64,000 bases of DNA, taken from assembly GCA_964361595.1 (NCBI GenBank), contig CAYIAX010000001.1, forward strand, positions 98,128 through 162,127, given 5' to 3'. Under the pieces are notes generated by a model. It saw only the letters and a list, made by a program, of their open reading frames with translations, made no database searches and was not told the DNA's origin. Origin of the DNA: an uncultured Candidatus Saccharibacteria bacterium (GTDB lineage: Bacteria > Patescibacteriota > Minisyncoccia > UBA6257 > 2-01-FULL-56-20). Of this stretch, positions 3,056 to 57,734 are shown in pieces; position 1 is the first letter of the stretch, and the number at the start of each line of letters is the position of its first letter. A program made the translations under genes and the position numbers.

Positions 3056-3214
3056 TTCACGACGCAAGATTCACGAGTAATTTCTAAAGTCGATAAAAAA
3101 ACAAAAAGTAATCCACAAAGTATCAATGCTGATATGCGAATAATACTAATTATACGGATGAAGAATTAGTATCATTAGTGAAATTAGTATATTCGTATCG
3201 ATACAATACATATT

Positions 3215-5071: not shown

Positions 5072-6032
5072 GAATCTTGTTACGCCGCGAATCATAAGGC
5101 CCAAGGGTTATTTTAAAGCCTTGGCGCTTGATGTTGCTGCGGTTTTGGCGGCTTTCTTTATGAGTTACGCCTTCAAGCTTTATTTAGCAGAACAAGCATC
5201 TTTGACGTTGGTTATAAGCATTTTGGGTTTATGGGCATTGATTTCGATCTTGCGTACTTTGACGACAAGAACCCTGGGGCGGCGCGCGCTCGTGGCGCTG
5301 CTCCAAACGGCGGCCCTGCTTGTGATCTTTTTAGGAATACCGCTTCAATTCCTGCTCTTGATCGCCGCCGGTGTTTTCATTTTCCTCTTTTGGGGCGAAG
5401 CCAGCGCTTTCACGGAGCTTACGCAAAGCCTGGAGGTAAGATTTTTTCGCACGACCCGCGCGCATGTGAACAGGCTCGTCACCGCCGCGATTATTTTTAC
5501 GCTTTTTATTTATATCGCCACGAACAGCCAAAATCTGTTCGTTTCTGAAAAGAGCTTCACGAAGGTTTACGGCCTTACCGCAGAGGCCGTAAAAAACAGC
5601 TATCCGGATTTGCGGCTTGACTCTACTTTCCGCACGTTTGCCGAAAGCGTTGCAAGGCGGGAGCTTGCAAAACGTCCTGAATATGCTGAGCTAAATACCC
5701 CTATGAAGGAAGCGGCCCTGGCCAAAGCAACGGATGAATCTATGGCGCAGATCCGCGAGACACTCAAGCTTTCCGCAGGAGGGGATGAACAAATGAGTTC
5801 GGTATTCTACAACTTTTTCCGCAGCACGATGGAAGGCTGGCAGAAAACTTTCGGGAAGGCATTTGTCGCGATTTGGGTTATAATCCTTTTCCTGATCCTC
5901 AAGGGTTTTGGCACGCTTTTTTACCTGGGGGTTGGCCTCATCGGTTACTTGCTTTATCAGGGCTTGATCGTTTTAAATGTCATCCATATTATCGGAGAAA
6001 GCCGATCGCGCGAGGTCATAGAATTTACATAA
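5037..6032 (+). CDS. Hypothetical polytopic membrane protein inserted between dnaK and dnaJ
   Basis: 331 aa with several hydrophobic segments. It overlaps the dnaK 3' end by 35 nt, so the true start may be the internal Met near 5160. No recognisable domain. Confidence 0.45.
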
Positions 6033-6135
6033 TTTCGAAGCACGAAACTCGAAATCCTAAACAAATTCAAATGAGGATAACTAGAAAAGACCAAAAATGT
6101 TTCGGATTTCGATATTCGAATTTCGGATTTTAACC

Positions 6136-8363: not shown

Positions 8364-9056
8364 TTACTTCGATTCCACGAACGCGTAATTCTGCCAAAAA
8401 CTTTTATAATACTCCAGCTCTTCGCCGCTATGCATTGCGGGATTGGGGAGTGGAGGAGTTAGAACGCCAGGATGAGCTGATTGGATTTGCGGATTTTCTT
8501 TTCCGTCCGGCCAAACCAAGGCGACAATTAAATCATCGCTCGTGGGAATTTCCTGTGACTTTATAAAATTCCTCTGCATTGCATCTGCTCCGGCCGCTCC
8601 GCGCTCTTTATGGTAAACCGCCGGACGCAGTTCATCCGTAATGCGAAGGAGATTACCGAATCCGAGCGGTGCGTTTGGATTTAAACCGTACTCTGCCTTC
8701 AATTCTGGTGTCAATGTAATTTTAAAAATTGTTCTGCGAGGGCCGCGGCGATACCAGGTAAGTCCTTGCTCTCTGCGTTTTGCTTCGGCTAATGCGATCG
8801 CGCGGATCTTTTGCGGGTCATCAATGTGCTGGTCGGGATGGAATTTGGCCCCGTGAGTTTTAAGCAAGCCGTCTAAATAAGTCTCGTCAATAACTTGCTC
8901 GCCCTGCGGCGAGCGGATTTTTTGGCCAAGAAATTTTGCTTTTACCTCCGGCGTAACTTCGTTCAAGTGGCGAAGCAGGTGCAGCTCGTTTTGGAACGGC
9001 AACACTAAATCTTTGATTTTGCCCGGAGCCGGTTCCGGCGAGCCGTAAAACCGCAC
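8364..9056 (-). CDS. Hypothetical protein (possible degenerate J-like HPD motif)
   Basis: 230 aa with no clear domain. The segment KTHGAKFHPDQ...IRAIALAEAKRR weakly resembles J-domain helices II and III. Confidence 0.4.
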   Translation of the reverse strand: MRFYGSPEPAPGKIKDLVLPFQNELHLLRHLNEVTPEVKAKFLGQKIRSPQGEQVIDETYLDGLLKTHGAKFHPDQHIDDPQKIRAIALAEAKRREQGLTWYRRGPRRTIFKITLTPELKAEYGLNPNAPLGFGNLLRITDELRPAVYHKERGAAGADAMQRNFIKSQEIPTSDDLIVALVWPDGKENPQIQSAHPGVLTPPLPNPAMHSGEELEYYKSFWQNYAFVESK

Positions 9057-11197: not shown

Positions 11198-11357
11198 TTT
11201 TAAAATTCTTCGCATCAAACTTGTGAACCGCTATGCTATAGCATAGCGGTCAAAAAACGGCGAATTTTCGGGAATAATTTTAAGAACAAAAAAACCCGCC
11301 ACATGTGTGACGAGTCCGCGCACCTCCTTTCCGGGTGAACGTTGTTAATGATTGCAG

Positions 11358-12274: not shown

Positions 12275-13003
12275 GTGAAAAAAATGAAAAACAGTTTGCA
12301 GCTCACCGCGCTCCTGTGCGTGGTACTGCTTTTGGCCCCGATGTTTCCGTTGCCGGCCGTGGCCGCCGACGTCCCCGCTTGTCGTGTCGGTTCTAATCCG
12401 GTCGCTCCCGAGAAAGACGTCGACTGGGGTTCCGAGTGCATTGTCATGCTCAAGGAACCACGCGCGATCCAAACATATCAGCGCGGGGGGAAACCGGGCA
12501 GGACGTGTACCTTGGGGCTCGCCGATATTCTCGTGGTGGACAAAACCACGGGGAAGTTGAAGCGGGTTTTGGGTTGCAACAACCCACCCACGCCCGAGTA
12601 CGCGGCGTGGATTCCGGAGGGGAAAAAGATTTGCCAAAATCAGCCCTCGCCGGTGCCGCCGGGCACGCCAGCCGCACACATGCCCAAGATTCCGACCGCG
12701 TATTCTATCACGCACCTCGGGGAGGTGCGCGTGATTAACGAGGTCGACTTCAAAAATTCGCTCCAGGTCGAACTCGGCCCGACCACACTCCGCGCGATCG
12801 ACTCGTTGGCCGAGACATACAGGAAGGGTCATGAGAAGCGCGGCCTCTCGACCGGCGCGAAAGCGGGGATTGGCGCCGGCCTCGCAGCTCTTGTCGGTGG
12901 CATCGTGTATGCTGCTACCCGAGGCAAGGGGAGCAACACGACCAACATCTACAATCAGAACCCGCCCGGAGGCACACCGCCTCGTCCGCCGGGCAACAAC
13001 TGA
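12275..13003 (+). CDS. Hypothetical secreted protein with a C-terminal hydrophobic anchor (GC-rich island)
   Basis: N-terminal signal peptide (MKKMKNSLQLTALLCVVLLLAPMFPLPAVAA), several Cys, a C-terminal GIGAGLAALVGGIVYAA segment, and a Pro-rich tail. Confidence 0.5.
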   Translation: MKKMKNSLQLTALLCVVLLLAPMFPLPAVAADVPACRVGSNPVAPEKDVDWGSECIVMLKEPRAIQTYQRGGKPGRTCTLGLADILVVDKTTGKLKRVLGCNNPPTPEYAAWIPEGKKICQNQPSPVPPGTPAAHMPKIPTAYSITHLGEVRVINEVDFKNSLQVELGPTTLRAIDSLAETYRKGHEKRGLSTGAKAGIGAGLAALVGGIVYAATRGKGSNTTNIYNQNPPGGTPPRPPGNN

Positions 13004-13023: not shown

Positions 13024-13070
13024 GTCCGCGCGGCGTCACACAATGTGCACGCCGCTTTTTATTTTCATTT
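13024..13070 (+). terminator. Rho-independent terminator of 12275-13003, with the hairpin GCGGCGT...ACGCCGC followed by TTTTTATTTT
   Basis: A 7-bp GC stem followed by a T-run. Confidence 0.55.
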
Positions 13071-13195
13071 ACCAGAATATCTCGCCGCTTTGCGGCGAGT
13101 CATAAATAGCAGAGTGAAAATAACCCTGAGCCGAGTCGAAGGGTTACTATGCGTAGATACCGTAGCGCTTGCGGTGCTATAATTTATTTTCGCGA
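13046..13195 (+). ncRNA. Copy 1 of a two-copy structured element (candidate ncRNA or cis-RNA). Its paralog is at 45712-45885.
   Basis: About 80% identical to 45712-45885. The shared stems are ttattttca/gtgaaaataa and aaccct/agggtt, the latter with a variable loop. There is a terminal GC hairpin around cgcttgcgg. Confidence 0.4.
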
Positions 13196-13411
13196 AGCAA
13201 AAATATCTCGCTTGTCCGCCGTAACTTTAGTGAAGGCGGGAGCATTGTCGAGGGATTTCCTTGGAAGCGAAAATATTCAACGTCCGATGTCCCCGATATG
13301 TAATTTTTTGACATCGGATGCCCATGCGCTCGGAAGAATTTTGATTTTAGCGGACTTGACATTGTGCAATTCCGGTTTGGCCGACTTGACAAGGGTGGGG
13401 AAAGCCTACTA

Positions 13412-13440
13412 TTGACATGTTGCGGACAGTATGATAAGAT
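13412..13440 (+). promoter_or_regulatory. Sigma70-like promoter of the giant surface protein. TTGACA is followed by a 17-nt spacer and TAAGAT. Two further TTGACA boxes lie just upstream.
   Basis: TTGACA at 13412-13417 and TAAGAT at 13435-13440. Confidence 0.45.
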
Positions 13441-19258: not shown

Positions 19259-19288
19259 AAAATTATACTACAATTGTAGTATAATTTT
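19259..19288. terminator. Perfect 30-bp palindrome AAAATTATACTACAATTGTAGTATAATTTT. It probably acts as a bidirectional terminator between convergent genes.
   Basis: An A-run on the 5' side, a T-run on the 3' side, and a perfect hairpin. The core CTACAATTGTAGTATAA recurs at 34040-34056. Confidence 0.55.
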
Positions 19289-19343
19289 AGTAACTCGAGA
19301 TTTAGCTGAACTGAAAATAAAAGACGCGATGTAGAACACCGCG

Positions 19344-30001: not shown

Positions 30002-30154
30002 TCTAAAAACCGAAGCACGAAGCACGAAGCACGAAATTCGAAACAAATTTAAAATGAAAAAAGCAAATAAAAAAATTAAAAAAATTCCGGATTTCCTAGC
30101 CTCGACTTGCCGTCGAGGCGAGACGGGCGATATTCGGATTTCGAATTTCTGCTT

Positions 30155-32270: not shown

Positions 32271-32591
32271 ATGACTATTGACGAATTTCGCGCAGTCGAT
32301 TTGCGCGTGGCCACAATCCTTGAAGCCAGCCGCGTGGAGGGTTCGGATAAACTTGTGGCCTTGAAAATCACGGTCGGCGAGACGGAGCGCGAGCTTCTGG
32401 CCGGCATCGGCAAGGCCTATGAGCCGGGCGAGTTAATCGGCAAGCAAATCGTCGTCGTTTACAACCTTGACCCTAGAATAATGATGGGCCGGGAAAGCCA
32501 AGGGATGCTTCTGGCCGCTTCCGGGCCCGACGGCAAGCCAGTTCTACTTGTGCCCGAAAAAGAAGTCGAACCAGGAACACGCATAAATTAA
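32271..32591 (+). CDS. tRNA-binding protein of the CsaA/Trbp111 family (Myf domain)
   Basis: 106 aa. VDLRVATILEASRVEGSDKL...ESQGMLLAA is the OB-fold tRNA-binding domain. Confidence 0.75.
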   Translation: MTIDEFRAVDLRVATILEASRVEGSDKLVALKITVGETERELLAGIGKAYEPGELIGKQIVVVYNLDPRIMMGRESQGMLLAASGPDGKPVLLVPEKEVEPGTRIN

Positions 32592-32629
32592 ATTCGAAGC
32601 ACGAAGCACGAAATCCGAAACAAATTCGA

Positions 32630-32983
32630 ATGACAGAAGTTCATAAAAAATACGACCTGGAAAAACGAACTTTTGAGTTCGCAAAAAGAGTTAGGGATTT
32701 TGTAAGTAAACTTCCGAGGACCGTATCTGCTATCGAGGACTGTAAGCAGCTTGTGCGTTCATCTGGTTCTGTCGGTGCAAATTATATTGAGGCCAATGAA
32801 TCTTTGAGTAAAAAAGATTTTTTACTCCGAATTAAAATTTGCCGAAAAGAAGCCAAGGAAAGTAAATATTGGCTTGAACTTCTTAATGTCGACAAGAATT
32901 TACTAGCTGAACACAGCTATTTAATAAAAGAAGCAACTGAACTAATGATGATTTTCAGTGCTATTATGAGGAAGTCGCAATAA
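32630..32983 (+). CDS. Four-helix-bundle protein (23S rRNA intervening-sequence protein family)
   Basis: 117 aa. ...FEFAKRVRDFVSKLP...VRSSGSVGANYIEANES.SKKDFLLRIKICRKEAKESKYWLELL matches TIGR02436/PF05635. Confidence 0.75.
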   Translation: MTEVHKKYDLEKRTFEFAKRVRDFVSKLPRTVSAIEDCKQLVRSSGSVGANYIEANESLSKKDFLLRIKICRKEAKESKYWLELLNVDKNLLAEHSYLIKEATELMMIFSAIMRKSQ

Positions 32984-33024
32984 GTTTCGGATTTCGATAT
33001 TCGAATTTCGAATTTAAGAAAACT

Positions 33025-34019: not shown

Positions 34020-34132
34020 AAAACTTCTCACTCCCATCATGCTACAATTGTAGTATAACGGGAGTGAAGTGAGAGCGAGATGAAAGCTTATGGGAAATCG
34101 AGTAATAAATCGGCCGGCTTAGCTGCGATTGC

Positions 34133-37200: not shown

Positions 37201-37457
37201 GGTGCGAGTGGCCCCGGAACGCGAGCAAGTTCGTAACGCGGATGAATAAATTTATTTTTTATGCACATATTTCAGGTGCTGTGCTATAGCACAGCACCAT
37301 GATTCATCATAGCACCGGCAAAGTGAGGTTCGCGGTGTTTGTTCGATTAAAAATCTCGAAAAAAACCTGTTGGCCGTTTTCATTTTCACCATATAACCGA
37401 ACGAGTTTACTATCCTAAATGACGATCGTAATTAGGGATAGTAAATCAGGTTATTTT

Positions 37458-39203: not shown

Positions 39204-39284
39204 TGCGTACTTTTAAAAATTTGAAATTCGAATATCGAAATCCGAAACAATTTTCGAATTTCGTACTTCGTGCTTCGAATTTGT

Positions 39285-42889: not shown

Positions 42890-42909
42890 CTTTTGGCTTC
42901 GCAGAAAAT

Positions 42910-42938
42910 TGCCCGCCGTGAGGCGGGTGATTTTTTTG
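42910..42938 (+). terminator. Rho-independent terminator. The stem CCCGCC/GGCGGG is followed by T7.
   Basis: gcccgccgtgaggcgggtgattttttt. Confidence 0.75.
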
Positions 42939-43470
42939 TTTGTACTTGTTTATAAAGTAATCCTTCGATTCGTGCGGGCAAGCAGGATGTTTTAGTCCTG
43001 ACGACGAAAACAAAAAACGCCCGCAGGTTGAACCCTTGGGCGTCGAACTAAACTAAACCCCTATGTCTCGATCGGGGAACGGTATCTGCCGGCGAGTCCG
43101 GAGCAGACGCGACACTCTTTGCCCCAGAGCTGGCGGTGGGCGTAGTGCTCGAACCCGACTGCGGCTGACTTTTCGCAAACCGGGTTTGCCCAACGCACGA
43201 ACCGTTCCCAAATCATTATCCATACCCCTGCAGATTTCAATTTCATCGGAGTGGCCTCCTGCTGCAAGGGATTAGTGTTGCTAGGTTTAGTGAAGCAGAC
43301 CTGAATGCAAAAAGTCAAGTAGAAATTGTCCAAACCTTATCCTCATGCTTTCCCCAACCCGTAACTAAATCAGCTTTCCGGCGTTTACTTTAGTGTCTGC
43401 CAAGCCCGGGCGGGGTCTCCGGAGCTGGGCATGTTAATCTAAAAATGTCGATTTTAAACAAAACAAAAAT

Positions 43471-44427: not shown

Positions 44428-44467
44428 CACACCACGATAATTAGCCATGGCTAATTATCGTGGTGTG
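44428..44467. promoter_or_regulatory. Perfect 40-bp palindrome ACACCACGATAATTAGCCATGGCTAATTATCGTGGTGT, 58 nt upstream of the dinB start. Candidate operator.
   Basis: The two 20-bp arms are exact reverse complements with no spacer. There is no T-run after it, so it is not a typical terminator. Confidence 0.45.
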
Positions 44468-44524
44468 AGGCCGCCACGCTGTGCCGTTCTTTCTTATATC
44501 CGCGTCGAGCTTTATTATTTGAAA

Positions 44525-45613
44525 ATGCGAATTATTGGACATCTCGACATGGACGCTTTTTTTGCTGCGGTTGAAGAGCGGGACAATCCGCGTTTCAAAG
44601 ACAAACCGCTCGTAGTGGGCGCCGATCCGCAGGATGGTAAGGGGCGCGGAGTAGTCTCCACCGCCAATTACAAAGCCAGGGAATATGGCATTCGCTCGGC
44701 CATGCCAATAACGCAGGCCTGGCGTTTGGCTAAAGAAGCCGAAGCAAAAGGGAAGCCACCGGCAATTTTTTTGGGCGTGAGCGGTGGGAAATATTCTGAA
44801 GTTTCAAGTCGCATCGTGAGCATTGTGCGTCGGCATGTTCCGGTGATTGAAGAGGCGAGCATTGATGAAATGTATTTGGATCTTAGTTTTACGAAAACAC
44901 ATGAAGCTGCTCGCAAGTTGGCGCTCAAAATTAAAGCGGAGATTTGGCGAGAAGAAAAACTCACGGCTTCTGTGGGCATCGGCCCTAATAAATTGGTTGC
45001 TAAAATCGCTTCTGACCGAGAAAAGCCGGATGGACTTACCGTAGTCGAGAAGAAAGATATTGAAGAGTTTTTAGAACTGCTGCCTCTGCGGGCCATTCCT
45101 AGTATTGGACCGAAGACGGAAATACAACTGCGCGCCCGCGGTTATCTGACCGTTAAGGATGCGAAAAAATTGAGCAAAGCACAACTTGTTCAAATGTTCC
45201 ATAGCTGGGGCGGCGATCTTTATGAGAAATTGCGCGGACAGAACGATAGTCCATTGGAAACAAATTGGATACCTAAATCTATCGGCGAGCAGGAAACATT
45301 TGCCGAGGACACTATTGATGCCGTCCAAATTTCGGCGAAAGTAAAAGAACTTGCGGAAGAAGTTTTTGAAAGATTCAGCGCCAGCCAATTCAAATCCTGG
45401 CGGACAGTGGTTTTGACTGTAAGATTTGCTGATTTTGAAACAAAAAGCCGGGCCAAAACCCTGGCTTTACCCGAGCGCACCGTGGCGGAGCTCGCGTTTG
45501 CAGCCGCCACAATACTGATGCCATTTTTGGATGCTCGCGAGAATCCGCGGCGCAAGAAGATCCGCCTCCTAGGCGTGCGGATCGAAAAATTGTCCAATGG
45601 CCGTATGCGTTGA
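44525..45613 (+). CDS. dinB: DNA polymerase IV (DinB, Y-family)
   Basis: MRIIGHLDMDAFFAAVEERDNP and SIDEMYLDL motifs. The Met at 44525 aligns with canonical DinB N-termini. The upstream ATG at 44447 lies inside the palindrome. Confidence 0.9.
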   Translation: MRIIGHLDMDAFFAAVEERDNPRFKDKPLVVGADPQDGKGRGVVSTANYKAREYGIRSAMPITQAWRLAKEAEAKGKPPAIFLGVSGGKYSEVSSRIVSIVRRHVPVIEEASIDEMYLDLSFTKTHEAARKLALKIKAEIWREEKLTASVGIGPNKLVAKIASDREKPDGLTVVEKKDIEEFLELLPLRAIPSIGPKTEIQLRARGYLTVKDAKKLSKAQLVQMFHSWGGDLYEKLRGQNDSPLETNWIPKSIGEQETFAEDTIDAVQISAKVKELAEEVFERFSASQFKSWRTVVLTVRFADFETKSRAKTLALPERTVAELAFAAATILMPFLDARENPRRKKIRLLGVRIEKLSNGRMR

Positions 45614-45711
45614 GTTTTATTTATGAATTTTTTGATAAGCTAGGTACGCCGTTTCCCGTGCTTAAAGATAGCGACCTTGACCTCAAGCGCAACGCTATCC
45701 CATCGACCTGC

Positions 45712-45885
45712 GCTTTTTTATTTTCACTTACCAGAATACCCCGCCGCTCTGCGGCGAAGATGAATAGTGGAGTGAAAATAACCCTGCCGCCCGGCTTAGC
45801 TGGGCGAGCCTCGCCACAGGCGGGAGTCGGGTCGAAGGGTTACCTGTATAGATGCCGCACCGCTTGCGGTGCGGTAATTCATCTG
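45712..45885 (+). ncRNA. Copy 2 of the two-copy structured element (see 13046-13195). It carries a ~40-nt insertion in one hairpin loop.
   Basis: Conserved blocks TTTTTATTTTCAyTTACCAGAATA, CGCCGCTyTGCGGCGA, GAGTGAAAATAACCCTG and GTCGAAGGGTTAC. The insertion sits inside the aaccct/agggtt hairpin loop. Confidence 0.4.
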
Positions 45886-45962
45886 CTTTTTGACTTTTGC
45901 TGTGCTCGAGGCTATTTTGAATACACCCCCTGCGGCAAACCGATGGGGACTTTGCGCGTTTT

Positions 45963-48089
45963 ATGCCAAATCATTTCCAGCTAAAATCGAATTTTAAACC
46001 GGCTGGCGATCAACCGCGAGCGATCGATGCGCTTGTTTCGGGTTTGGAAAAAAATTTGAAACATCAAACTTTGCTTGGCGTAACCGGTTCGGGCAAGACC
46101 TTTACGATCGCGAATGTAATCGCCAAGGTCAACAAACCCGCGCTCGTGATTGCGCATAATAAAACATTGGCGGCCCAGCTCACCAATGAGTTTAAGGAGT
46201 TTTTTCCGCATAATTCGGTCAACTATTTCGTTTCCTATTACGATTATTACCAACCGGAAGCATATTTACCGACCACCGACACTTATATCGGCAAAGAGGC
46301 TTTGATTAACGAGGAAATTGATAAACTGCGCCATGCGGCGACGACCGCGCTCTTAACGCGCCGGGACGTGATCGTGGTCGCTTCAGTCTCTTGCATTTAT
46401 GGTTTGGGCGCGCCGGAGATATATGCGCAAAATATTTTCCATTTCCAAACGGGGGATTTAGTGAAGCGCGAGGAACTTGCCCGCAAACTGATCGAACTTC
46501 AATTTAAGCGAACCAATGCGGATTTGAAGCGGGGGACCTATCGCTTGCGCGGCGACACCTGGGAAATTATGCCGCCCGACCGGGAGGTAATTTACACTTT
46601 TGACCTTAAGGGTGGAGTGATCGAAAAAATCTACGAAATTGATCCCGTGCAGGGCTTCCGGCCCGGCAAAACTCCGACTGTACAGGAAATCTTCATTGCG
46701 CCCGCCAAGCACTTCATCACGCTTGTACCCGAGCGCGAACGGGCCATTAAGGCAATCAAAGCCGAGCTCAAGGAGCGGCTTAAATACTTCGAGGAGCACA
46801 AGAAGTTTCTCGAAGCCGAACGGCTGGAACGGCGCACCAAATTCGACATCGCCATGATCCGCGCCGTTGGCTATTGCCACGGCATCGAAAACTATTCCCG
46901 GCACCTTTCCGGCCGCGGCCAGGGCGAACCGCCCGCCACGCTTTTGGATTATTTTTTTACCCGCCGACTTGGCCACCATAGCTTCAGCGCTGGTGGAAGC
47001 CTTGGCGAAGGCGGGCCTTCGCAGCGCGGAAGCGTGCAGACGAAACGCGATCGTCAGGAAGAGCTGGACTTCCTGACCATAATTGACGAATCGCACGTTA
47101 CTGTGCCGCAGATCTCCGGCATGTTCGCAGGCGATGCTTCGCGCAAGCGTACTTTGATTGAATACGGTTTCCGTTTGCCTTCCGCGGCCGACAACCGTCC
47201 GCTCACCTTCAGAGAATTCGAGGCGAGGGCAGGCCGGACAATTTATACTTCGGCGACGCCAGGGTCTTACGAAAAGAAGGTCAGCAAGCAAACCGTAGAA
47301 CAGATAATCCGCCCCACCGGTTTGGTGGATCCTAAAATCACCGTGCGGCCGGCGCGCGGACAGATTGACGACCTTTTGCCGCGCATTGAAGGACGGGTAA
47401 GGGAGAAAGAGCGGGTGCTTGTAACCACGCTTACAAAGCGCATGGCCGAGGATTTAAGCGCGTATCTCGAGGAGCTCAAGATAAAGGTCACATATCTCCA
47501 CAGCGACGTAAAAACTCTGGATCGGATCAGGATTTTGACTTTATTACGGAAAGGGTCCGCCAGCGGCGGATTCGACGTTTTGGTCGGCGTAAACCTGTTG
47601 CGCGAAGGCTTGGACCTGCCGGAAGTTTCATTAGTCGCGATTCTTGACGCCGATAAGGAGGGGTTCCTGCGGAGCGAAACGTCGCTGATCCAGACCATTG
47701 GCCGGGCGGCCAGGAACGTGGCCGGCGAAGTTTTGATTTACGCCGACCAAATCACAGGCTCGATTGAGCGGGCGCTTAAAGAAACCGAACGGCGCCGTAA
47801 GCTCCAGTTGGAATACAATAAAAAACACGGGATTACGCCCAAAACCATCGTCAAGGCTATTACTGATATTCTGCCGAATGTGGACGAGATCCTGAAACTG
47901 GAGCTAAAACCAGTGCCGATATCAAAAGCCGCCCTCGAGGAGATGATTGCGGCGAAGGACAGGGAGATGAAGGCGGCGGCGAAACGCCTGGATTTCGAAT
48001 TGGCAGCACTTTTACGGGACGAGCTAAAATTGCTTTATAAAAAACAAGCCCAAAAGACAAAACCCAAGGAGCATTCAACTAAAGACTAA
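45963..48089 (+). CDS. uvrB: Excinuclease ABC subunit B
   Basis: 708 aa. Walker A GVTGSGKTFT, helicase motifs, the beta-hairpin, and the C-terminal UvrC-binding coiled coil. Confidence 0.95.
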   Translation: MPNHFQLKSNFKPAGDQPRAIDALVSGLEKNLKHQTLLGVTGSGKTFTIANVIAKVNKPALVIAHNKTLAAQLTNEFKEFFPHNSVNYFVSYYDYYQPEAYLPTTDTYIGKEALINEEIDKLRHAATTALLTRRDVIVVASVSCIYGLGAPEIYAQNIFHFQTGDLVKREELARKLIELQFKRTNADLKRGTYRLRGDTWEIMPPDREVIYTFDLKGGVIEKIYEIDPVQGFRPGKTPTVQEIFIAPAKHFITLVPERERAIKAIKAELKERLKYFEEHKKFLEAERLERRTKFDIAMIRAVGYCHGIENYSRHLSGRGQGEPPATLLDYFFTRRLGHHSFSAGGSLGEGGPSQRGSVQTKRDRQEELDFLTIIDESHVTVPQISGMFAGDASRKRTLIEYGFRLPSAADNRPLTFREFEARAGRTIYTSATPGSYEKKVSKQTVEQIIRPTGLVDPKITVRPARGQIDDLLPRIEGRVREKERVLVTTLTKRMAEDLSAYLEELKIKVTYLHSDVKTLDRIRILTLLRKGSASGGFDVLVGVNLLREGLDLPEVSLVAILDADKEGFLRSETSLIQTIGRAARNVAGEVLIYADQITGSIERALKETERRRKLQLEYNKKHGITPKTIVKAITDILPNVDEILKLELKPVPISKAALEEMIAAKDREMKAAAKRLDFELAALLRDELKLLYKKQAQKTKPKEHSTKD

Positions 48090-48448
48090 ACACTTTATGC
48101 ACCTTTCGTGGTAATTTATCCACCGCTTCTTAACCTTTTTGCGTTGACTTTTTCCGAGGATGTTCAACAATGGAATTAGGTTGGCGCGGCGAATGGATTG
48201 GCACTTCCGATCAAATAATATAAATACCTTTTAGCAGTCCCATCGCGCGGGTTCGAGGACCCCCGGTAAGGCTCAATCGTGGTATCCTGCGGAATCCCAA
48301 CTCCATTACAAGCGCCGGACCTACTTATGGGAAGGTGAGGTTTCCGTAGGAATAGCTACGGTGCTTTGCCTTGTCTGGCTTGTTGCGTGTTATATCGTCA
48401 TAGTCATTCTTATCGTATCGTAATTGTCATTGTATAAGTCTGGGAGAA

Positions 48449-48478
48449 GGCGCCTGCGGGCGTTTTTTTTGGTTTTTT
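48449..48478 (+). terminator. Intrinsic terminator: a short GC hairpin followed by T8. It closes a ~350-nt ORF-free region downstream of uvrB.
   Basis: ggcgcctgcgggcgtttttttt. Confidence 0.45.
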
Positions 48479-48534
48479 GGCCTGTGGATAAACTGGCCTT
48501 GTCTACAGAATACATGGTCGGGTAGAATGTAAAC

Positions 48535-49185
48535 GTGGAAACACCAGTAACTGCAAGGCAAAAAGAGCTTTTGGGGCTTATTTATGACTATCTTAAGGAA
48601 ACTGGATATTCCCCGACGATAAGCGAAATGAGGGAAAGGCTTAAGGTTGCTTCCAATCAATCCATCCTTGATCTTCTTAAAAAACTGGAAAGTGGGCAGC
48701 TGATAAAAAAAACCGAATCTGCCGCGCGGAGTATTTCCATATTGCCTTTGGCATTCCAGCTTTTATCAAGGCCGCCCCTGGTTGAATTTATGGGCGCTAC
48801 GAGCGCCGGTTCTCCGATCGGAAGCATAGAAATAACGGGAGAATGGCAAGTCCTGCCTTCTTTCCAGGGCGAGAAAGTTTCGAAGCTCAAAAACGATGTT
48901 TTTCTTCTGAAAATCCACGGCGATTCGATGATTAACGCCGGAATTGATAATGAAGACATAGTTTTGGTCCAAAAACAGAAAGAGTTTATTTCCGGAGATA
49001 TTGTGCTCGCGCAAATAGGGGATGAGTCAACCATAAAAAGATTTATTTCCGACGACAAGCCCCCGTATGTTTATTTGAAGCCGGAAAATCCGAAATACCA
49101 AAATATTCCCTTTACTGAAGAGATGCGGCTGGAAGGAAAGGTCATCTCGATTTCCAAAAACGGCTACTGGCAGCCGCTAAAATAA
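48535..49185 (+). CDS. lexA: LexA repressor (S24 peptidase)
   Basis: N-terminal winged HTH (LTARQKELL...GYSPTISEM). Catalytic Ser in GDSM and catalytic Lys in STIKRF. Confidence 0.85.
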   Translation: METPVTARQKELLGLIYDYLKETGYSPTISEMRERLKVASNQSILDLLKKLESGQLIKKTESAARSISILPLAFQLLSRPPLVEFMGATSAGSPIGSIEITGEWQVLPSFQGEKVSKLKNDVFLLKIHGDSMINAGIDNEDIVLVQKQKEFISGDIVLAQIGDESTIKRFISDDKPPYVYLKPENPKYQNIPFTEEMRLEGKVISISKNGYWQPLK

Positions 49186-51167
49186 TGCCCACGGCGAAAA
49201 CGAACGAAAGCCGGAAAATAATAGATAAGATTTTTGGAAATCCCGATATAGCTTTCGGACTCAAAGAATTCGAGGGAATAGATTTTAACCAAATTCTCAA
49301 GATCACCGAGAATCAGCCGGGCCGTTTTTACATAAAAGATTTAAAATCCGGCAGCCAGAAATTTGTTTATGATGAAACGAAGAATACCGGCAAGCCGGAA
49401 GAAATTATCCGCCAGCTGTGGCTTTATAAACTAAACACGCATTATAAGTACCCGTTCGAAAGGATCGAAACCGAAAAGAGCATCCGGTTTGGCCGGGAAG
49501 TCCATGCAAAGGCGGCTGATGTTGTTATCTATAAAAAAGACAAAATAACCCCGTATATAATTTTAGAGGTTAAAAATCCCGACGAGAAAAAAAGTATTGA
49601 TCAGCTGAAAACTTACTTAAACTCCGAGGGGTCGGAAATCGGCGTTTGGTCTAACGGCAAGGACAAGGTCATTCTCTATCGCCCCTATCCTAAAGAATTT
49701 GAAGATTCTTTAAGCGATATTCCCCGCGCCGACCAAACCATAGACGACCTTTTTGAAATAAAAAGAAGCTGGGGAGATTTGAATCCGAAATTCGACTTTA
49801 TCGAGATTGTCCGGCACATGGAGGAGCTGGCCCTCGCCGGTTCAGGCGCGAATGTTTTTGAAGAAATATTTAAAATCGTTTACGCCAAACTTTATGACGA
49901 GAAGCTGGCGCGTGAGCGAAGGGAAAATGAAGAAGTGGTTTTCAGAAAATACCGCGATCCGCAGAAAACCTATGATGTTATCAATAACGAGCTTTTCAAA
50001 AACGCCATAAAAGAGTGGCCGGACACTTTCGAGCCGTCGGACAGAATCCGCCTTTCTCCGGATCGATTAAATATCTGCGTGGCCTTTCTTGAGAACATCC
50101 GGCTTTTTGAAATCGGCCAGGGGGAATACGAAATTATTGATAGCGCCTTTGAGTATCTCATAACCGAAGTTTCAAAAGGTAAAAAGGGGCAGTATTTTAC
50201 CCCTCGCCATGTAATTAAGATGTGCGTAAAGATGATGGAACCGAAAGAGGGGGAATATGTGCTCGATCCCGCTTGCGGCTCCGGCGGATTCCTTTTGCAT
50301 TCGATGTATCGCGTTTGGGAGGGCCTTAAGACCGAATCGGCCCAGAAAAATTATGCTTCCAAATATATTTTTGGATTTGATTTCGACGACAATATGCGGA
50401 GAATTTCGCAGGCGTTGATGCTTATAGCCGGTGACGGCAAGCATCACATTTTCAAAAGGGATTCGCTTGACGCGCGCGACTGGCAGGGCGGCGAAAGCGA
50501 AGATGCGCGGGTTGCTCTAAAGCCGCTTCTCGCGAGATTTGATAATCTCTCGGACGATAAGGCCAATCAAAATTCATACCGGCATTTGAATTTTGACATA
50601 ATACTCACCAATCCGCCGTTTGCCGGAGAAAATCCCGAGATCGGGCTTTTACGTCAGTATGAGTTGGCCAGAAAAGAAGGCGGCAAGCTGAAAAATAACG
50701 TCGAGCGGCACATTTTATTCATCGAGCGGGTTCTTGATGCCGTAAAGCCCGGCGGGCGGGTTGCAATCGTCCTGCCGCAAGGCGTTTTGAACAACACGAA
50801 TATGAAATATATCCGGGATTACCTTTTCGAGAAAGCCCGGGTTTTGGCGGTGGTCGGATTGCATGGAAACACATTTAAGCCCCACACGGGAACGAAAACA
50901 AGCGTTTTGTTTCTGCAGAAATGGCTTGCCCGCCGAAGTCTCGACGAAGGCGGGGGCGAAGATCAAAAGCCGCTCAAGGACTACCCGATTTTTATGGCGG
51001 TTTCCAAGAAAGGCGGCAAGGACAATTCGGGCGATTACATTTATAAAAAAGACGCGAACAGAAATTATTTCCATAACGACAAAGGCCGGAAAGTCCTTGA
51101 TCACGACTTGGACGAAATAGCAGATGAATTCAGGAAATTTTCCGGAAAAGAAAAACTCGAATTTTAG
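49185..51167 (+). CDS. hsdM: Type I restriction-modification M subunit (N6-adenine MTase) with an N-terminal HsdR_N-like PD-(D/E)xK domain
   Basis: The N-terminal ~190 aa has an ADVVIYKK...PYIILEVKNPDE nuclease-like core (HSDR_N_2-type). MTase motif I is LDPACGSGGFLL and motif IV is TNPPFAG. The ATG overlaps the lexA stop (TAATG). Confidence 0.85.
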   Translation: MPTAKTNESRKIIDKIFGNPDIAFGLKEFEGIDFNQILKITENQPGRFYIKDLKSGSQKFVYDETKNTGKPEEIIRQLWLYKLNTHYKYPFERIETEKSIRFGREVHAKAADVVIYKKDKITPYIILEVKNPDEKKSIDQLKTYLNSEGSEIGVWSNGKDKVILYRPYPKEFEDSLSDIPRADQTIDDLFEIKRSWGDLNPKFDFIEIVRHMEELALAGSGANVFEEIFKIVYAKLYDEKLARERRENEEVVFRKYRDPQKTYDVINNELFKNAIKEWPDTFEPSDRIRLSPDRLNICVAFLENIRLFEIGQGEYEIIDSAFEYLITEVSKGKKGQYFTPRHVIKMCVKMMEPKEGEYVLDPACGSGGFLLHSMYRVWEGLKTESAQKNYASKYIFGFDFDDNMRRISQALMLIAGDGKHHIFKRDSLDARDWQGGESEDARVALKPLLARFDNLSDDKANQNSYRHLNFDIILTNPPFAGENPEIGLLRQYELARKEGGKLKNNVERHILFIERVLDAVKPGGRVAIVLPQGVLNNTNMKYIRDYLFEKARVLAVVGLHGNTFKPHTGTKTSVLFLQKWLARRSLDEGGGEDQKPLKDYPIFMAVSKKGGKDNSGDYIYKKDANRNYFHNDKGRKVLDHDLDEIADEFRKFSGKEKLEF

Positions 51168-51669
51168 AAATAAGCCTAGAATTGATTTCGAGAAGTTCAA
51201 GAGGGCTAAATTAGACGCTGAAGAATTTTATAAATCTATCGGAGAAATTTATTGCCCTTATTTAAAAGAAAAAATTTCATTTAATGCTAAAGGATTAGAT
51301 CATATAAAATTTGGGGGCTGGAACAAAACAAGACCCCTAAGAGATCAATATATTAGATTGCGACTTCTGAAATTAGCCCCTCAAATAATAAGAGAGTCAC
51401 ATACTTTACAGGAATTTTTCGAAACAACGCGCCTTGAGCGGCGTAGAATAAACGCAAAATGGCAGATGAGCATAGAAAAAACTACTTATTATGGTTTCGT
51501 AGCAATAATCAGAGATTGCAGAATAAAAATAATTATTAAATCAATAGAAGGTGGAAGTAAATTTTTTTGGAGTATTATTCCTTTTTGGAAAAACAGAAGA
51601 TATAAAGTCGATGAAAATACTGTAAATAACAAAAAAATTCTCCATGAAGGAGATTTGGAATTGCAGTAA
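51124..51669 (+). CDS. Hypothetical protein A, embedded between hsdM and hsdS
   Basis: 181 aa, basic. The start overlaps the hsdM 3' end. No recognisable domain. AT-rich. Confidence 0.4.
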   Translation: MNSGNFPEKKNSNFRNKPRIDFEKFKRAKLDAEEFYKSIGEIYCPYLKEKISFNAKGLDHIKFGGWNKTRPLRDQYIRLRLLKLAPQIIRESHTLQEFFETTRLERRRINAKWQMSIEKTTYYGFVAIIRDCRIKIIIKSIEGGSKFFWSIIPFWKNRRYKVDENTVNNKKILHEGDLELQ

Positions 51670-51817
51670 TTCAAGCGGTGTTTGTCTGCGGTTTAAAGAT
51701 TGTAACTGCGGGAGAACCAAAGTCCTCACAAACACCATTGGTAGTATACACCAAAACGGTCAAAAAATCAACTGTGGATAAATTAAAGAAAATATAGTCG
51801 AAAAAACAACCAAAAAT

Positions 51818-52282
51818 ATGAAAATCGAACTTACAAAGGAACAATATAAAAAATTGCTCATTATGAGCGAAATAACAAACAGCATTTTCGGCCTTTTAGG
51901 CGATCATCTGCCAAATACGGATTATAAAAAACGCTCGAACGAAATGGAGCGATTTGGAAAATATCTTTTGGGGAAAGCCGGTGATTTCGGTTGCAAGGAA
52001 TTTACGGAAAAATTCGAAGGGAAGGATGTTTTTAATGAGAAAACACATCATCGGCTTATCATGCCGATATTGGAAGATTACGAAGAGTTTATAATTTTCG
52101 ATGGATTGGCTAATAAATTAGCCTGGCGCGATTTTCGCCGCGATCATTCGGAAGCGGAAATGCGGGAAATGGGAAAAAAGAACGGCGGCTATTTCGGAGT
52201 CGCGCTTTATAATTACGAGAAAAAATACTGGGATGAGTTTAAGAAGCATGATTACGAAAGATTGGAGATAAAAGAAAAATAA
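51818..52282 (+). CDS. Hypothetical protein B, embedded between hsdM and hsdS
   Basis: 154 aa, charged (K/E-rich), no recognisable domain. Confidence 0.45.
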   Translation: MKIELTKEQYKKLLIMSEITNSIFGLLGDHLPNTDYKKRSNEMERFGKYLLGKAGDFGCKEFTEKFEGKDVFNEKTHHRLIMPILEDYEEFIIFDGLANKLAWRDFRRDHSEAEMREMGKKNGGYFGVALYNYEKKYWDEFKKHDYERLEIKEK

Positions 52283-52290
52283 AATTAATT

Positions 52291-52641
52291 ATGTCAAATA
52301 ATATTTTTCCAGAATTGGACGGTTGGGACGATATTAACTCAAGCGGGGGGACTATTGGCACCGGAATAAATAAAGCGATTCATAGATTGGTTATTTCTAT
52401 TGCCAATTTAAGGTCTAGTGTTTCTTCGCAACTTACGTACGTTAAAGGGAAGATAGAAAGCTTGAATCAATCTTTCGAACAACTTAACGAAAATATTCAA
52501 AAAGCAGATCAATCATCTACGAAATTAGCAAGAGCGCTTAACAAATTAACTTTCTGGGCTGTAGTTATTGCGGCTCTTGGGCTCTTAAATTCGTTAGGTC
52601 AGTTTTTATACCAAAATAAATTATGGCCGTTTTCTCAATAA
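52291..52641 (+). CDS. Hypothetical small protein C with a coiled-coil segment and a C-terminal TM helix, embedded between hsdM and hsdS
   Basis: 116 aa. LTFWAVVIAALGLLNSLGQFLY is a TM helix. Its 3' end overlaps the hsdS start. Confidence 0.4.
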   Translation: MSNNIFPELDGWDDINSSGGTIGTGINKAIHRLVISIANLRSSVSSQLTYVKGKIESLNQSFEQLNENIQKADQSSTKLARALNKLTFWAVVIAALGLLNSLGQFLYQNKLWPFSQ

Positions 52642-53987
52642 TTAAAAAAAGCGAATTGGAAGGATCCTTGCGGCTGGACGCGGAATATTATAAGCCGGAG
52701 TACCTGGTTACATTGGAAAAGATAAAAAGCTTCACTTCCGGATTTAAAAAGTTGCCTTATTTCTTATCCAGAGTAGTTGTTACGGGAAGTACGCCAAAGA
52801 AAAGAAGTTGTAGAAACGATGGCACGGATATTAAATTTATTAAGACAGATACCTTGCGAGAAGGACAAATTATTTTTGAAGAAGCAGATTTTTTACCCCT
52901 ACAAGAAAGTCGAAAAAATAGCGAGCCAAAAAACGGAGATATTCTCGTAACTATAATTGGAGCAACTCACGATATAGTTGGGCGGGTTGCAAGGGTATTT
53001 TCCGATGATCCCAAAATAAATATTAACCAAAATATCGCTTTATTAAGGCCGAATCAATTAAGTTTTTCTAGTTATATTTCTGTTTTGCTTCAAACAAAAT
53101 ATGGGCGGGGTCAATTATGGCAACAAAGCAGACAAACGGAGCAAGTCAACTTGAATTGTCGTGAAATAGAAAATATTTTAGTGCCGCTACCTAAAGATAA
53201 TTTTATCGCAGATATAGATAATCTCGTTATAGAATCACATGATTTAATTAGGCAGTCTAAAAATTTATACTCCCAGGCCGAAAATTTGCTTTTGGAAGAA
53301 TTGGGACTGAAAGATTTTCAGGCCGAGAGTAAATTGTATTCAATAGTCAACCTTTCCGAACTGAAATCCGCCAACCGCATGGACGCGGAATATTTCCAAT
53401 CGCATTATGATGGCGTGCTAAATTTAAAAATCGATAAGAAAAGATTATCGGAAATTTCAGATAGAGTAACCGAAAAAATTAAGCTAAATCTAAATTTGGA
53501 ATACAAATATACAGAAATTGGCGACATAGATATTGGGAGCGGAGAAGCTTCGTTTAATTTAAAACAAGGGAAAGATCTGCCAGCTAACGCTAAAATCGGA
53601 ATTTCTGGCGGAGAATTGATAATCTCCAAGGTCAGGCCGACTAGGGGCGCAATCGCAATTGTTCCGGAGGATTGGAAAGATAACCATGTCGTAAGCGGAG
53701 CGTTTTCCGTAATAAAAGCAAGTTCTCCTTTGCGGGAATATATGCAAGTAGTTTTGCGGTCTATAGTTGGTAAGTTGCAAATGGAGAAACCGACAACCGG
53801 AAGTTCGTATCCGACAATTGATGATTCCGACGTGGAAAATCTTTTAATCCCGATTTTGCCTAAAGCGACCCAGCAAAAAATCGCCGACCTGGTTAGAAAA
53901 TCCCACGAAGCGCGGAAAAAATCAAAAGAACTGCTTGAAGAAGCAAAACGGAAAGTTGAGGAAATGATTGAGAATTCCAATAACTAA
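52623..53987 (+). CDS. hsdS: Type I restriction-modification specificity subunit (HsdS) with two target-recognition domains
   Basis: Two repeated conserved regions (LRLDAEYYKPEY and RMDAEYFQSHY) and conserved central and distal helices (LIPLPP...QQKIADLV). Confidence 0.8.
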   Translation: MAVFSIIKKSELEGSLRLDAEYYKPEYLVTLEKIKSFTSGFKKLPYFLSRVVVTGSTPKKRSCRNDGTDIKFIKTDTLREGQIIFEEADFLPLQESRKNSEPKNGDILVTIIGATHDIVGRVARVFSDDPKININQNIALLRPNQLSFSSYISVLLQTKYGRGQLWQQSRQTEQVNLNCREIENILVPLPKDNFIADIDNLVIESHDLIRQSKNLYSQAENLLLEELGLKDFQAESKLYSIVNLSELKSANRMDAEYFQSHYDGVLNLKIDKKRLSEISDRVTEKIKLNLNLEYKYTEIGDIDIGSGEASFNLKQGKDLPANAKIGISGGELIISKVRPTRGAIAIVPEDWKDNHVVSGAFSVIKASSPLREYMQVVLRSIVGKLQMEKPTTGSSYPTIDDSDVENLLIPILPKATQQKIADLVRKSHEARKKSKELLEEAKRKVEEMIENSNN

Positions 53988-54914: not shown

Positions 54915-55016
54915 ACTGAATAGGCTATACTTACCTCGCGAGTGACCCACCCTGGTTCCCAACCGGTGGGAAATTAAGTTTTAAATTCGAAGCACTAAGC
55001 ACGAAATTCGAAATTT

Positions 55017-57734
55017 ATGCAGAACAAAATAGTTATCAAAGGGGCGAGGGAACACAACCTCAAGAACATCAACCTGGAGCTGCCGCGGGATAAAATGATT
55101 GTCTTTACCGGTCTTTCCGGTTCGGGCAAATCCAGCTTGGCGTTCGACACGATTTTTGCCGAAGGCCAGCGCCGCTACATCGAATCCTTATCCGCATACG
55201 CGCGGCAGTTTTTGGGCCGCTTGGACAAGCCGGATGTGGACGAAATCGAGGGGCTTTCGCCGGCAATTTCCATTGACCAAAAAAGCCATTCCTCGAATCC
55301 GCGCTCAACCGTGGCCACGATCACGGAAATTTACGATTACCTCCGTGTCCTTTTTGCCCGTTTGGGCAAACCCTACTGCCCCGAATGCGGCAAAGAAATC
55401 AAAAGCATGACCAACGAGGAAATCGTGGACGCGGTTATTGAAATCTCCAAGCAAAATGCTGCCGAGAAAAACCTAGTCATTCTCGCGCCCGCCGTGCGCG
55501 GTCGCAAAGGGGAGTATTACCAGATGCTTTACGACTTTTTAAACGCCGGCTTCAGGGAAGTGCGCGTGGATGGTAAGTTTTATCCCTTGCGCGAGCGGAT
55601 TGAACTTTCCCGTTACAAGCAGCACACGATTGAGCTTGTGATTGATCGCATCCCGCACGGGTTGGATTTTAGGCACAAAGATAACCGTCTGCGTTTGGCC
55701 GAAGCCATCGAAACTGCTTTGAAATACGGCAACGATGTGGTTACGATCCATATGATGGGTGATCATGCCGCCCCCAAGGGGGCGCCCGCTCCGACTCCCC
55801 GCTTCGCTCTCGCGAAGACGAGGCGAGGGAGACGAGGCGAGAGCCTCGCCCCGCAGCAAGCAGGGCGGGAAGTTTCTTTGTCGGCCAAATTCACTTGTCC
55901 GCAGGACGGATTTTCATTTCCTGAAATTGAGCCGCGGCTGTTCTCGTTCAATAGCCCTTATGGCGCATGTCCCGCCTGCCACGGTTTGGGCACAGAGGAA
56001 GTCTGGTCGGAAAAGATTTGTCCGGTTTGCCAAGGCAAGCGGTTGAAGCCGGAAGCCTTGAATGTTCTGATTGACGGAAAAAATATTGTAAGCGTAACGG
56101 CTTTTTCGATCGCCGCAGCCTTCGAATTTTTCGGCAAACTGCAGATAAAAAACGATATGCGCTTCCGCGAAGTGGCGGAAGTCCCGCTACGCGAAATCAA
56201 GAACCGGCTCAAATTCATGATTGACGTGGGCCTGGATTATTTAACGCTCGAAAGAAAAGCCGGAACGCTTTCCGGCGGTGAATCCCAGCGCATTCGCTTG
56301 GCTTCACAAATTGGCTCTCGTTTGGTCGGTACGCTCTATATTTTGGACGAGCCCACTATTGGCCTGCACCAGCGGGACAATGAAAAACTTATAAATACGC
56401 TGCATGAACTGCGTGATTTGGGCAACACGATTATTGTGGTTGAGCATGACGAAGAGACCATCCGTTCCTCGGATTACCTGGTGGATATCGGCCCTGGTGC
56501 AGGCGTACATGGCGGCAGGGTCATTGTGGCCGGGGAGATAAAGGAGTTATTAGCGACAAGCGACAAGCGACCCTCCTCCGCTAAAGCTTCCACCGGCGCC
56601 AAAGCTATGGCGGACAAGTCGGCGGGCAAGCAAGATAATGCAGCATTCAATGAATCACTGACGCTTGATTTTCTCAAGGGAAAGCGAGAAATTCCGGTCC
56701 CATCCGAACGCCGCAAAGTCGGCAAAAACCAGGCTTATTTGAAGATTAAAGGCGCGCGGGCCAACAATTTGAAAAACATTGATGTGGAAATTCCGTTGGG
56801 CAAACTGACCGCTGTTACCGGCGTGTCGGGTTCCGGCAAAAGCTCACTGGTTTACGATGTGCTTTATAAAACTCTGGCAAATAAATTTAACGGCGCCGCT
56901 TATAAAGCAGGCCAGCATGCCTCTATGCTCGGCACGGAATATATTAATCGCGTCATCAATATCGACCAATCTCCGATTGGCCGGACGCCGCGTTCGAACC
57001 CAGCTACCTATGTCGGCGCCTGGACGTTTATCCGCGAGTTATTCGCGGCCTCCGAAGATGCTCGCGTTCGCGGCTACAAGCCTGGCCGGTTCAGCTTTAA
57101 CGTGCCGGGCGGCCGCTGCGAGAATTGCGAAGGCCACGGCACAATCGCCATCGAAATGCATTTCCTGCCGACGGTTTATGTAACCTGCGAAATCTGCAAA
57201 GGCAAACGCTTTGATCGGGAAACGCTTGAAGTGGAATATAAAGAAAAAAATATTTATGAAATTTTGCGCATGACCGTGGAGGAAGCCGTAAAATTTTTTG
57301 ATGAAATTCCCTGGCTTTATGATCGCTTGAAAATTTTGGAGGAAGTCGGGTTGGGTTATGTGGAGCTGGGACAGTCGGCCACGACTTTGTCCGGCGGCGA
57401 GGCGCAGCGGATCAAGCTCTCCGCCGAGCTTGGCAAGCGCGATACCCGCCGCACGCTTTATCTTTTGGACGAACCGACTACGGGGCTGCATTTCGGCGAC
57501 GTGGAAAATCTGCTTAAGGTTTTGGATCGGCTGGTCGATCGCGGCAATACAATCGTTGTGATCGAGCATAATTTAGATGTCATCAAAAATGCGGATTGGG
57601 TAATCGATCTTGGCCCCGAAGGCGGGGATAAGGGCGGAAAAATTGTGGGAGCGGGAACACCGGAGGACATCGCCAAGCGCGCAGGCAGCTTTACGGGCGA
57701 ATATCTGAAGAAAGTGCTTCGCTCGCATAAATAA
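55017..57734 (+). CDS. uvrA: Excinuclease ABC subunit A
   Basis: 905 aa. Two ABC ATPase modules ([10 protein letters not shown]; [10 protein letters not shown]), signature LSGGE.QR repeated twice, zinc modules (CP.C...C..C), and two low-complexity insertions. Confidence 0.95.

Follow-up and report, generated by a model that had tools for sequence, protein, structure and literature searches.

BOX elements of Streptococcus pneumoniae are modular repeats (boxA-boxB-boxC) that are restricted to the species, also occur as lone modules and are co-transcribed with their neighbours (PMC3049150, PMC3184786). SPRITE repeats have the shape of a Rho-independent terminator, lie near the 3' ends of genes and have perhaps been co-opted as terminators (PMC3049150, PMC3184786). 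MITEs and repeats of the ERIC/Correia type are likewise often found at gene 3' ends, where they are co-transcribed and affect mRNA stability or termination (PMC3184786), and roles in termination and in the protection of mRNA 3' ends have been proposed for REP/BIME sequences, which are associated with RAYT transposases (PMC3333891, PMC2817692). The literature that we searched contained no paper on small interspersed repeats in Patescibacteria, whose genomes are small and compact. Here we describe a structured repeat from one such genome and compare it with these systems.

The element lies in the spacer between a gene for a dinB-type Y-family polymerase (44447-45613, plus strand; Pfam IMS/IMS_C) and uvrB (45963-48089, plus strand; 708 aa with UvrB Pfam domains), with lexA (48535-49185; LexA) as the gene after uvrB; coordinates refer to the window, by which we mean the whole 64-kb stretch of DNA that was analysed. 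A first-pass annotation had placed a structured element at 45712-45885 between dinB and uvrB, with the uvrB start codon (ATG) at 45963. The identities of both genes and the start of the 708-aa product agree with this, and homology to another copy sets the limits of the element at 45714-45892 on the plus strand (covariance-model match 218 bits; nhmmer E = 3e-62; alignments and fold). The sequence was recovered again in independent assemblies of two replicate samples.

The RNAalifold consensus and the single-sequence folds agree on the layout of the element, all of it given here on the plus strand. It opens with a T-run, TTTTTTATTTT (45714-45724), which takes the form TTTTT(T)ATTTT across copies, begins every one of the four that are described below, and supplies with its last bases the 5' strand of the first stem, P1. 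This stem pairs 45719-45729 with 45770-45780 (span 45719-45780; consensus and pair tables), its strands reading ATTTTCAYTT and AGTGAAAAT, and it encloses a GC hairpin, P1b (45742-45747 with 45751-45756 in the consensus), with two conserved internal loops, ACCAGAATA and GATGAATAG. Next comes P2, in which ACCCT pairs with AGGGT (45781-45785 with 45836-45840, span 45781-45840; alignment, consensus fold and pair table) around a loop that holds two further hairpins, P2a (45786-45809) and P2b (45810-45824). The last part is a terminator-like hairpin, P3 (45850-45884; -19.4 kcal/mol, fold z = -3.75), followed by GCTTTTT, so that the whole module runs from 45850 to 45891.

The dinB-uvrB copy (copy 2) folds at -80.5 kcal/mol, far below shuffled sequence (z = -4.8), and the corresponding z-scores are -2.3, -6.8 and -4.7 for copies 1, 3 and 4. 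Two loop blocks, ACCAGAAT and GTCGAAG, are identical in all four. No start codon or open frame that would encode a small protein is common to the copies. The homology and the folds (z from -2.3 to -6.8) thus bear out the annotation's view of a real, repeated and strongly folding non-coding element. The ends of the unit, TTTTTATTTTC... and ...TAATTTATTTT, are direct T-rich repeats and not inverted ones; no terminal inverted repeats were found there, and the inverted repeats that were found are the internal stems. The sequence TTTATTTT(C) is present at both ends in copies 1 and 3 and is degenerate in copy 2. Because it has the same letters at every locus, a target-site duplication there would be indistinguishable from part of the unit.

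Whereas the element had been described as a two-copy structure, at least four full or near-full copies and several lone modules are present in ~92 kb of source DNA, on the window and on contigs L031, L037 and L039. Within the window, two core blocks of 17-21 nt occur exactly twice each, against chance expectations of 0.01 and 0.2. Copy 1 (13056-13197, plus strand), recognised by its homology to copy 2 with 84% identity over the core, is a short form that lacks P2a and P2b. Copy 3 (L031 8091-8268) emerged from a strict pattern scan of metagenome contigs; L031 is a separate contig of 31 kb from the sample in whose ENA assembly the exact UvrB sequence is found (well H43 of the Hainich groundwater, 0.1-um fraction), and from the shared sample, equal coverage and similar GC we infer that it is part of the same genome. 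Copy 4 (L037 6516-6656, same strand as the window copies) lacks P3 and lies ~4.7 kb before the start of the window; it was reached by extending leftwards past the window via a window-encoded protein, the rightward extension leading to L039. Core identity among the four copies is 84-93%, their similarity is significant at E = 1e-25 to 1e-62, the flanks are unique to each, and a replicate assembly independently returned copy 1 at 99.7% identity.

The hairpins P2a and P2b are together what had been called a loop insertion in copy 2. Relative to copy 1, copy 2 does carry 38 additional bases in the ACCCT/AGGGT loop, and they fold as two GC-rich hairpins; the segment is not, however, special to copy 2, as it is also found in copy 3 and, shortened, in copy 4. 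Copy 1 is the exception; loss of the segment from it is no less likely than an insertion. P3 with its T-run is present in copies 1 (terminator scan), 2 and 3 and missing from copy 4. Moreover, a P3 module stands alone downstream of a PaaX-like gene (L039 ~8990-9040), and a lone double hairpin like P2a/P2b follows directly after a tRNA-Gly gene (L031 3262-3313; tRNA 3184-3255). The absence of P2a/P2b from copy 1, the absence of P3 from copy 4 and the lone modules together indicate that the unit is modular.

One hairpin, CCCAGCTAAGCTGGG, recurs in three settings: as the terminator upstream of copy 3 (L031 8266-8296), in the double hairpin after tRNA-Gly, and as P2a (with the loop TTA). P2a/P2b may be a small palindromic element in its own right, lodged within the larger repeat. 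What may be a degenerate relative of the unit, assigned with low confidence (12 bits, E = 0.24 with filters off), lies on the minus strand between convergent genes at 42900-43035, where a hairpin with TTTTTTGTTTTCG is followed by ATCCTGCTTGCCCG (14 nt in common with the tail of copy 4) and then by TCGAAGGATTAC. Its candidacy as a diverged fifth copy that had undergone compensatory changes was considered, but the MAFFT alignment is ambiguous and the score not significant, and it is not counted here.

Among the described systems, BOX is similar in organisation: like the unit, it is a small non-coding intergenic repeat of separable stem-loop modules that can be absent or stand alone, it is restricted to a lineage, and it is thought to act via co-transcription. 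Separable modules, their variable presence and lone modules are all found for the unit. In contrast to BOX, which has TIRs, target-site duplications and a candidate mobilising IS, no such features were found here; the two have no sequence relationship, and the unit is always in sense orientation and starts at a terminator T-run. With SPRITE it shares a dispersed hairpin and U-rich tract near the 3' ends of coding sequences, as seen in copies 1-3 with terminator function predicted, and the lack of a clear TIR, TSD or partner IS. A SPRITE is, however, one long 18-bp duplex of ~105 nt, AT-rich and enriched between convergent genes, whereas the unit has a length of 140-180 nt, at least three helices and a core of 43-55% GC, and all four copies lie between co-directional genes.

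The unit also fits the general description of MITEs and of repeats of the ERIC/Correia type (100-200 nt, non-coding, several dispersed intergenic copies, a stable fold at the RNA level), with its four short copies. It differs from them in its ends, which are the direct T-rich repeats: the defining TIRs are absent, and the motif at the ends is the same at every locus, whereas their target-site duplications are locus-specific. REP/BIME sequences are likewise GC-rich extragenic palindromes in mosaic units downstream of genes, and other short palindromes coexist in the source genome. REPs are nevertheless units of 20-40 nt in hundreds of copies with alternating orientation, a conserved 5' tetranucleotide and a Y1 transposase, unlike the present composite, which keeps one orientation and has no fixed GTAG at the feet of its hairpins.

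Each of the four copies has co-directional genes on either side and is oriented like them. The copies start 17-100 nt past the upstream stop codon, with copy 4 overlapping it. Copy 1 follows a gene for a secreted or membrane protein (12275-13003) and precedes that of a 1581-aa Big_2/fn3 (Ig-domain) surface protein; the gene downstream of copy 3 encodes a Wzy_C/TPR (Wzy-like) membrane protein, and copy 4 is placed between TSCPD and Nramp genes. The annotation had tied the element to its SOS/NER neighbourhood, a tie that is lost once the other copies are seen to adjoin functionally unrelated genes.

In copies 1, 3 and 4 the T-run stands directly behind a strong, locus-specific hairpin (-17.6, -22.7 and -18.2 kcal/mol), and hairpin and T-run together form a predicted intrinsic terminator of the upstream gene. 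The strongest hairpin upstream of copy 2 reaches -11.9 kcal/mol and has its end 14 nt before the T-run; only a 5-bp GCGCA/TGCGC stem abuts the latter, and neither the terminator scan nor the fold gave a canonical terminator between the dinB stop codon and the element.

On the downstream side, the TTGACT that had been noticed after the element (45890-45895) proved to be the leading hexamer in a sigma-70-like match (TTGACT-17-TATTTT; 45890-45918, plus strand). This putative uvrB promoter starts at the last bases of the element, and no other promoter-like site was found on the two strands of 45400-46100. Comparable matches follow copy 1 (TTGACA-17-TAAGAT, 13412-13440, ~215 nt beyond the copy and ahead of the ATG at 13449) and copy 3 (TTGAAA-16-TATGAT), and no promoter-like site follows copy 4. 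No sigma-70-like match was found upstream of or inside any copy, with the proviso that promoter rules are not established for the host phylum. Since the downstream genes are unrelated and promoter matches lie beyond copies 1-3, an SOS/NER-specific role is ruled out and a common function as a 5' leader becomes very unlikely.

A search for a LexA box in the element returned only the 7-mer AGAATAC in common with the regions upstream of uvrB and lexA, which is at chance level in 64 kb, and this candidate was rejected. Three closely spaced TTGACA boxes at 13350-13420, upstream of the 1581-aa surface-protein gene, occur twice as GACTTGACA and once as TATTGACA; the gene likely starts at the ATG at 13449 and not at the GTG at 13364.

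Substitutions among the copies are mostly transitions (23, against 6 of the transversion type). Variable columns are not significantly rarer in paired than in unpaired positions (14/80 versus 15/53, p = 0.2), and transitions in stems, read on the plus strand, yield G-U pairs in 8 cases and A-C mismatches in 5, with no strand bias. The strand of action had been sought in these outcomes, which showed a plus-strand bias when three copies were compared; with four, the ratio of 8 to 5 is not significant. In the four-copy alignment 89% of the cells pair, and pairing and covariation both stay within the range of column shuffles, 99, 149 and 175 of 500 of which reach the observed values. No covariation above shuffles was found, the score being 0.123 compared with 0.116 in shuffles and 175 of the 500 reaching the observed value. 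This pattern of substitution and covariation is that of copies with a recent common descent. The fold is real and common to the copies by descent, with no covariation signal of conservation by compensation.

Conservation is uneven along the unit. Between copies 2 and 3 the core formed by P1 and P2 has 9 differences in 133 positions, compared with 14 in 44 for P3 (p = 8e-5), and the core is better conserved than P3 in both tests made (p = 8e-5 and 0.008). Possible reasons are that the core is constrained, that the modules have separate histories, or that terminator stems turn over faster. The contrast does not fit passive decay and could reflect selection on the core.

Searches beyond the source genome returned no counterpart. 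At gathering score, Rfam 15 recognised nothing in the whole window but one tRNA, and around copies 1 and 2 matches at E <= 10 were at chance level only (sar at 17.6 bits, outside the element, and a miRNA model). We also searched ~171 kb around uvrB from nine relatives with the covariance model and nhmmer and found no copy, where ~7 would be expected at the density of the source genome. The UvrB proteins of these relatives are 73-77% identical to that of the source, and the closest, at 76-77%, come, where named, from Liptonbacteria, Paceibacterota or Patescibacteria MAGs, which indicates that the host belongs to an isolated CPR/Patescibacteria lineage. In eight relatives with gene tables the spacer upstream of uvrB measures 56 to ~410 nt, and synteny differs.

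Phage and plasmid collections (BLAST) and viral contigs (three patterns) contained no match. An exact-pattern scan of 185,579 species genomes gave 26 matches, with ~22 expected by chance, in which only the pattern blocks match, and the metagenome pattern scan found matches only on contigs of the source organism itself, copy 3 among them. Because such scans of public collections need exact matches of 20-28 nt, which copy 4 itself fails, they have little power for diverged homologues, and the absence elsewhere rests mainly on the 171-kb sample of relatives. The outcome that had been named as counting against the element combined uvrB mRNA 5' ends upstream of it with a fold not conserved in other genomes. 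None of the other genomes sampled showed a counterpart, and the promoter-like site at 45890-45918 speaks against such 5' ends. The repeat family looks restricted to its lineage, here one Patescibacteria (Paceibacteria-type) population genome from Hainich groundwater.

We consider it probable, with a good deal of room for other readings, that the element is a member of a small, lineage-restricted family of dispersed, non-coding, modular hairpin repeats of BOX/SPRITE-like character, serving as the tail of the upstream mRNA and as a back-up terminator. A full unit comprises the T-run abutting a left hairpin (the predicted terminator of the upstream gene in three copies), P1 with its GC hairpin, P2 with or without two GC hairpins, and P3 with a T-run, and the copies fill the stretch from the 3' end of a gene to the promoter of its co-directional successor, invariably in sense. 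As no promoter match of its own was found, transcription of such a unit would depend on the upstream gene, whose mRNA would carry it as a 3' tail only where the first hairpin and T-run leak or, as at dinB, are weak. Its stable hairpins and the P3 terminator would then end and protect the upstream transcript and keep read-through from the next promoter, in this case the putative uvrB promoter at 45890-45918.

Applied to the dinB-uvrB spacer, this account makes the unit the 3' tail of dinB: since it has no promoter match of its own and lies behind a gene without a good terminator, we infer that it is transcribed with dinB, with a stop expected at P3 (45850-45891) and uvrB presumably read from its own promoter, which starts at the element's end. 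Its role as a terminator or insulator is a proposal of the same kind. Probable routes of spread are transposition with an enzyme supplied in trans, or recombination at the T-rich tails of terminators, and TTTATTTT is present at both ends of the unit; for classical transposition of the MITE type the ends gave no evidence, as they have no TIRs and the motif there is the same at every locus. The element is not a uvrB-specific or SOS-specific regulator.

A more far-reaching interpretation, which we put forward tentatively and regard as improbable on present evidence, takes one of two forms. The unit may be a new kind of non-autonomous mobile element which targets the base of intrinsic-terminator hairpins and supplies both a T-run and a terminator of its own, or else a lineage-specific structured RNA, borne on mRNA 3' ends in an ultra-small Patescibacteria genome, whose P1-P2 core is under purifying selection. 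The junction behind non-homologous hairpins in three of four copies, the strict sense orientation and the much stronger conservation of the core than of the 3' module fit these forms and are left unexplained by passive decay.

Uneven conservation also bears on the idea that the copies are a family of functional structured RNAs, either multicopy sRNAs or products of upstream-gene 3'UTRs, in which the P1-P2 core acts, for example, as a protein-binding or base-pairing platform and P3 is a mere terminator. In paralogous sRNAs the core is typically better conserved than the terminator part, as it is here (p = 8e-5 and 0.008), and the sense orientation of all copies relative to their neighbours, the terminator-like 3' end of three of the four, the folds that surpass shuffles by far in stability (z down to -6.8) and the invariant loop blocks ACCAGAAT and GTCGAAG in all four point the same way. 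There is, however, no promoter-like site upstream of or inside any copy, and homology that begins at a T-run right behind non-homologous hairpins would be an unusual 5' boundary for an RNA gene. Covariation does not exceed that of shuffles, mutations in stems break pairs as often as they keep them and show no strand bias, copy 4 is missing the terminator module, and neither Rfam nor the nine relatives gave a match; we regard this alternative as unlikely, though worth keeping in mind.

The lack of strand bias (8 G-U versus 5 A-C) in hairpins that are nonetheless kept would suit DNA palindromes, and with them an action at the DNA level, as a site of protein binding or recombination or as the terminus of an IS200/IS605-type or REP-type transposon, folded in single-stranded form. 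Other palindromes recur in the genome (a 22-bp palindrome at seven sites; CCCAGCTAAGCTGGG), and in three of four copies the unit stands immediately at the foot of a hairpin. We nonetheless judge such an action quite improbable: no Y1/HUH transposase, recombinase or IS was found in a partial scan of the sampled sequence (none among the 29 Pfam-scanned ORFs of the window and L031), the REP-type GTAG cleavage motif occurs at no fixed place, and a strict sense orientation to genes is unexpected for a simple protein-binding site.

That the element lies upstream of a gene every time and ends in a terminator-like hairpin, after a complex multi-stem fold compatible with a ligand- or protein-binding domain, could recommend it as a cis-acting leader (riboswitch or attenuator) of uvrB and the other downstream genes, with P3 as the regulated terminator. 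The downstream genes (for UvrB, the Ig-like surface protein, the Wzy-like protein and Nramp) nevertheless have no common function, sigma-70-like promoters follow copies 1-3 (~215 nt further on in copy 1) and none precedes the element, copy 4 has no P3, and neither a counterpart upstream of uvrB in nine relatives nor an Rfam match was found, which leaves little credence for a leader. Chance similarity or an assembly artefact, for which only the low coverage of the source contigs (~5x) could speak, is refuted by the E values (1e-25 to 1e-62), the reproduction of copy 1 at 99.7% in a replicate assembly and the unique flanks. An integron attC site, a group II intron remnant, an invertible promoter and a hairpin ribozyme were also considered and set aside, as the element has neither their defining motifs nor an Rfam match.

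The analysis removes a tempting false lead: a structured RNA amid dinB, uvrB and lexA is a dispersed repeat that adjoins unrelated genes and not an SOS regulator. If the unit completes or backs up terminators, repeats would shape the boundaries of transcription units in a reduced genome, and if it homes to terminator hairpins, the mechanism would be worth isolating. The source genome carries several repeat families, comprising the modular unit, a 22-bp perfect palindrome, a CGAAGCA-rich repeat and a repeat in-frame in uvrB and uvrA.

The 22-bp perfect palindrome, GTGCTATGCTATAGCATAGCAC, occupies seven intergenic sites in ~92 kb: 11230-11247 and 37275-37298 in the window, positions 6378, 7289, 10677 and 11168 of L037, and position 9058 of L039. 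Copies or fragments of the element lie near two of these sites. The palindrome may serve as an operator or an uptake signal, or it may be a REP-like unit. In the second family CGAAGCA/CGAAAT heptamers abound (for example AAATTCGAAGCACGAAGCACGAAATCCGAAAC), and its members lie in both orientations at gene boundaries (6030-6130, 30012-30056, 32589-32633, 32972-33015, 39216-39282 and 54982-55026), including one just before uvrA. Another palindrome, TACTACAATTGTAGTATAA, is common to two spacers (19262-19310 and 34036-34084) and is a candidate transcription-factor operator.

The surroundings of the element hold further peculiarities. The spacer between uvrB and lexA (48090-48534) is, at 445 nt, long for this genome and ends in a terminator-like GGCGCCTGCGGGCG with a T-run; neither a notable ORF nor, at E <= 1, an Rfam match was found in it. 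Restriction-modification genes with N6_Mtase/Eco57I/HSDR_N and Methylase_S domains lie between lexA and uvrA (49185-53987), and the relatives have uvrB, uvrA and uvrC near one another, which suggests that a defence island was inserted inside the NER cluster. Finally, a repeat of ~60-70 nt is carried in-frame by both uvrB (46957-47060) and uvrA (56571-56642) in opposite orientations, with 83% complementarity over 59 nt. A 35-residue insertion in UvrB (TRRLGHHSFSAGGSLGEGGPSQRGS...), which a 655-aa relative does not have, consists mostly of this repeat. The repeat is reminiscent of the Rickettsia palindromic elements (RPE), whose insertions into genes are likewise in frame, and it may be more unusual than the dinB-uvrB element itself.
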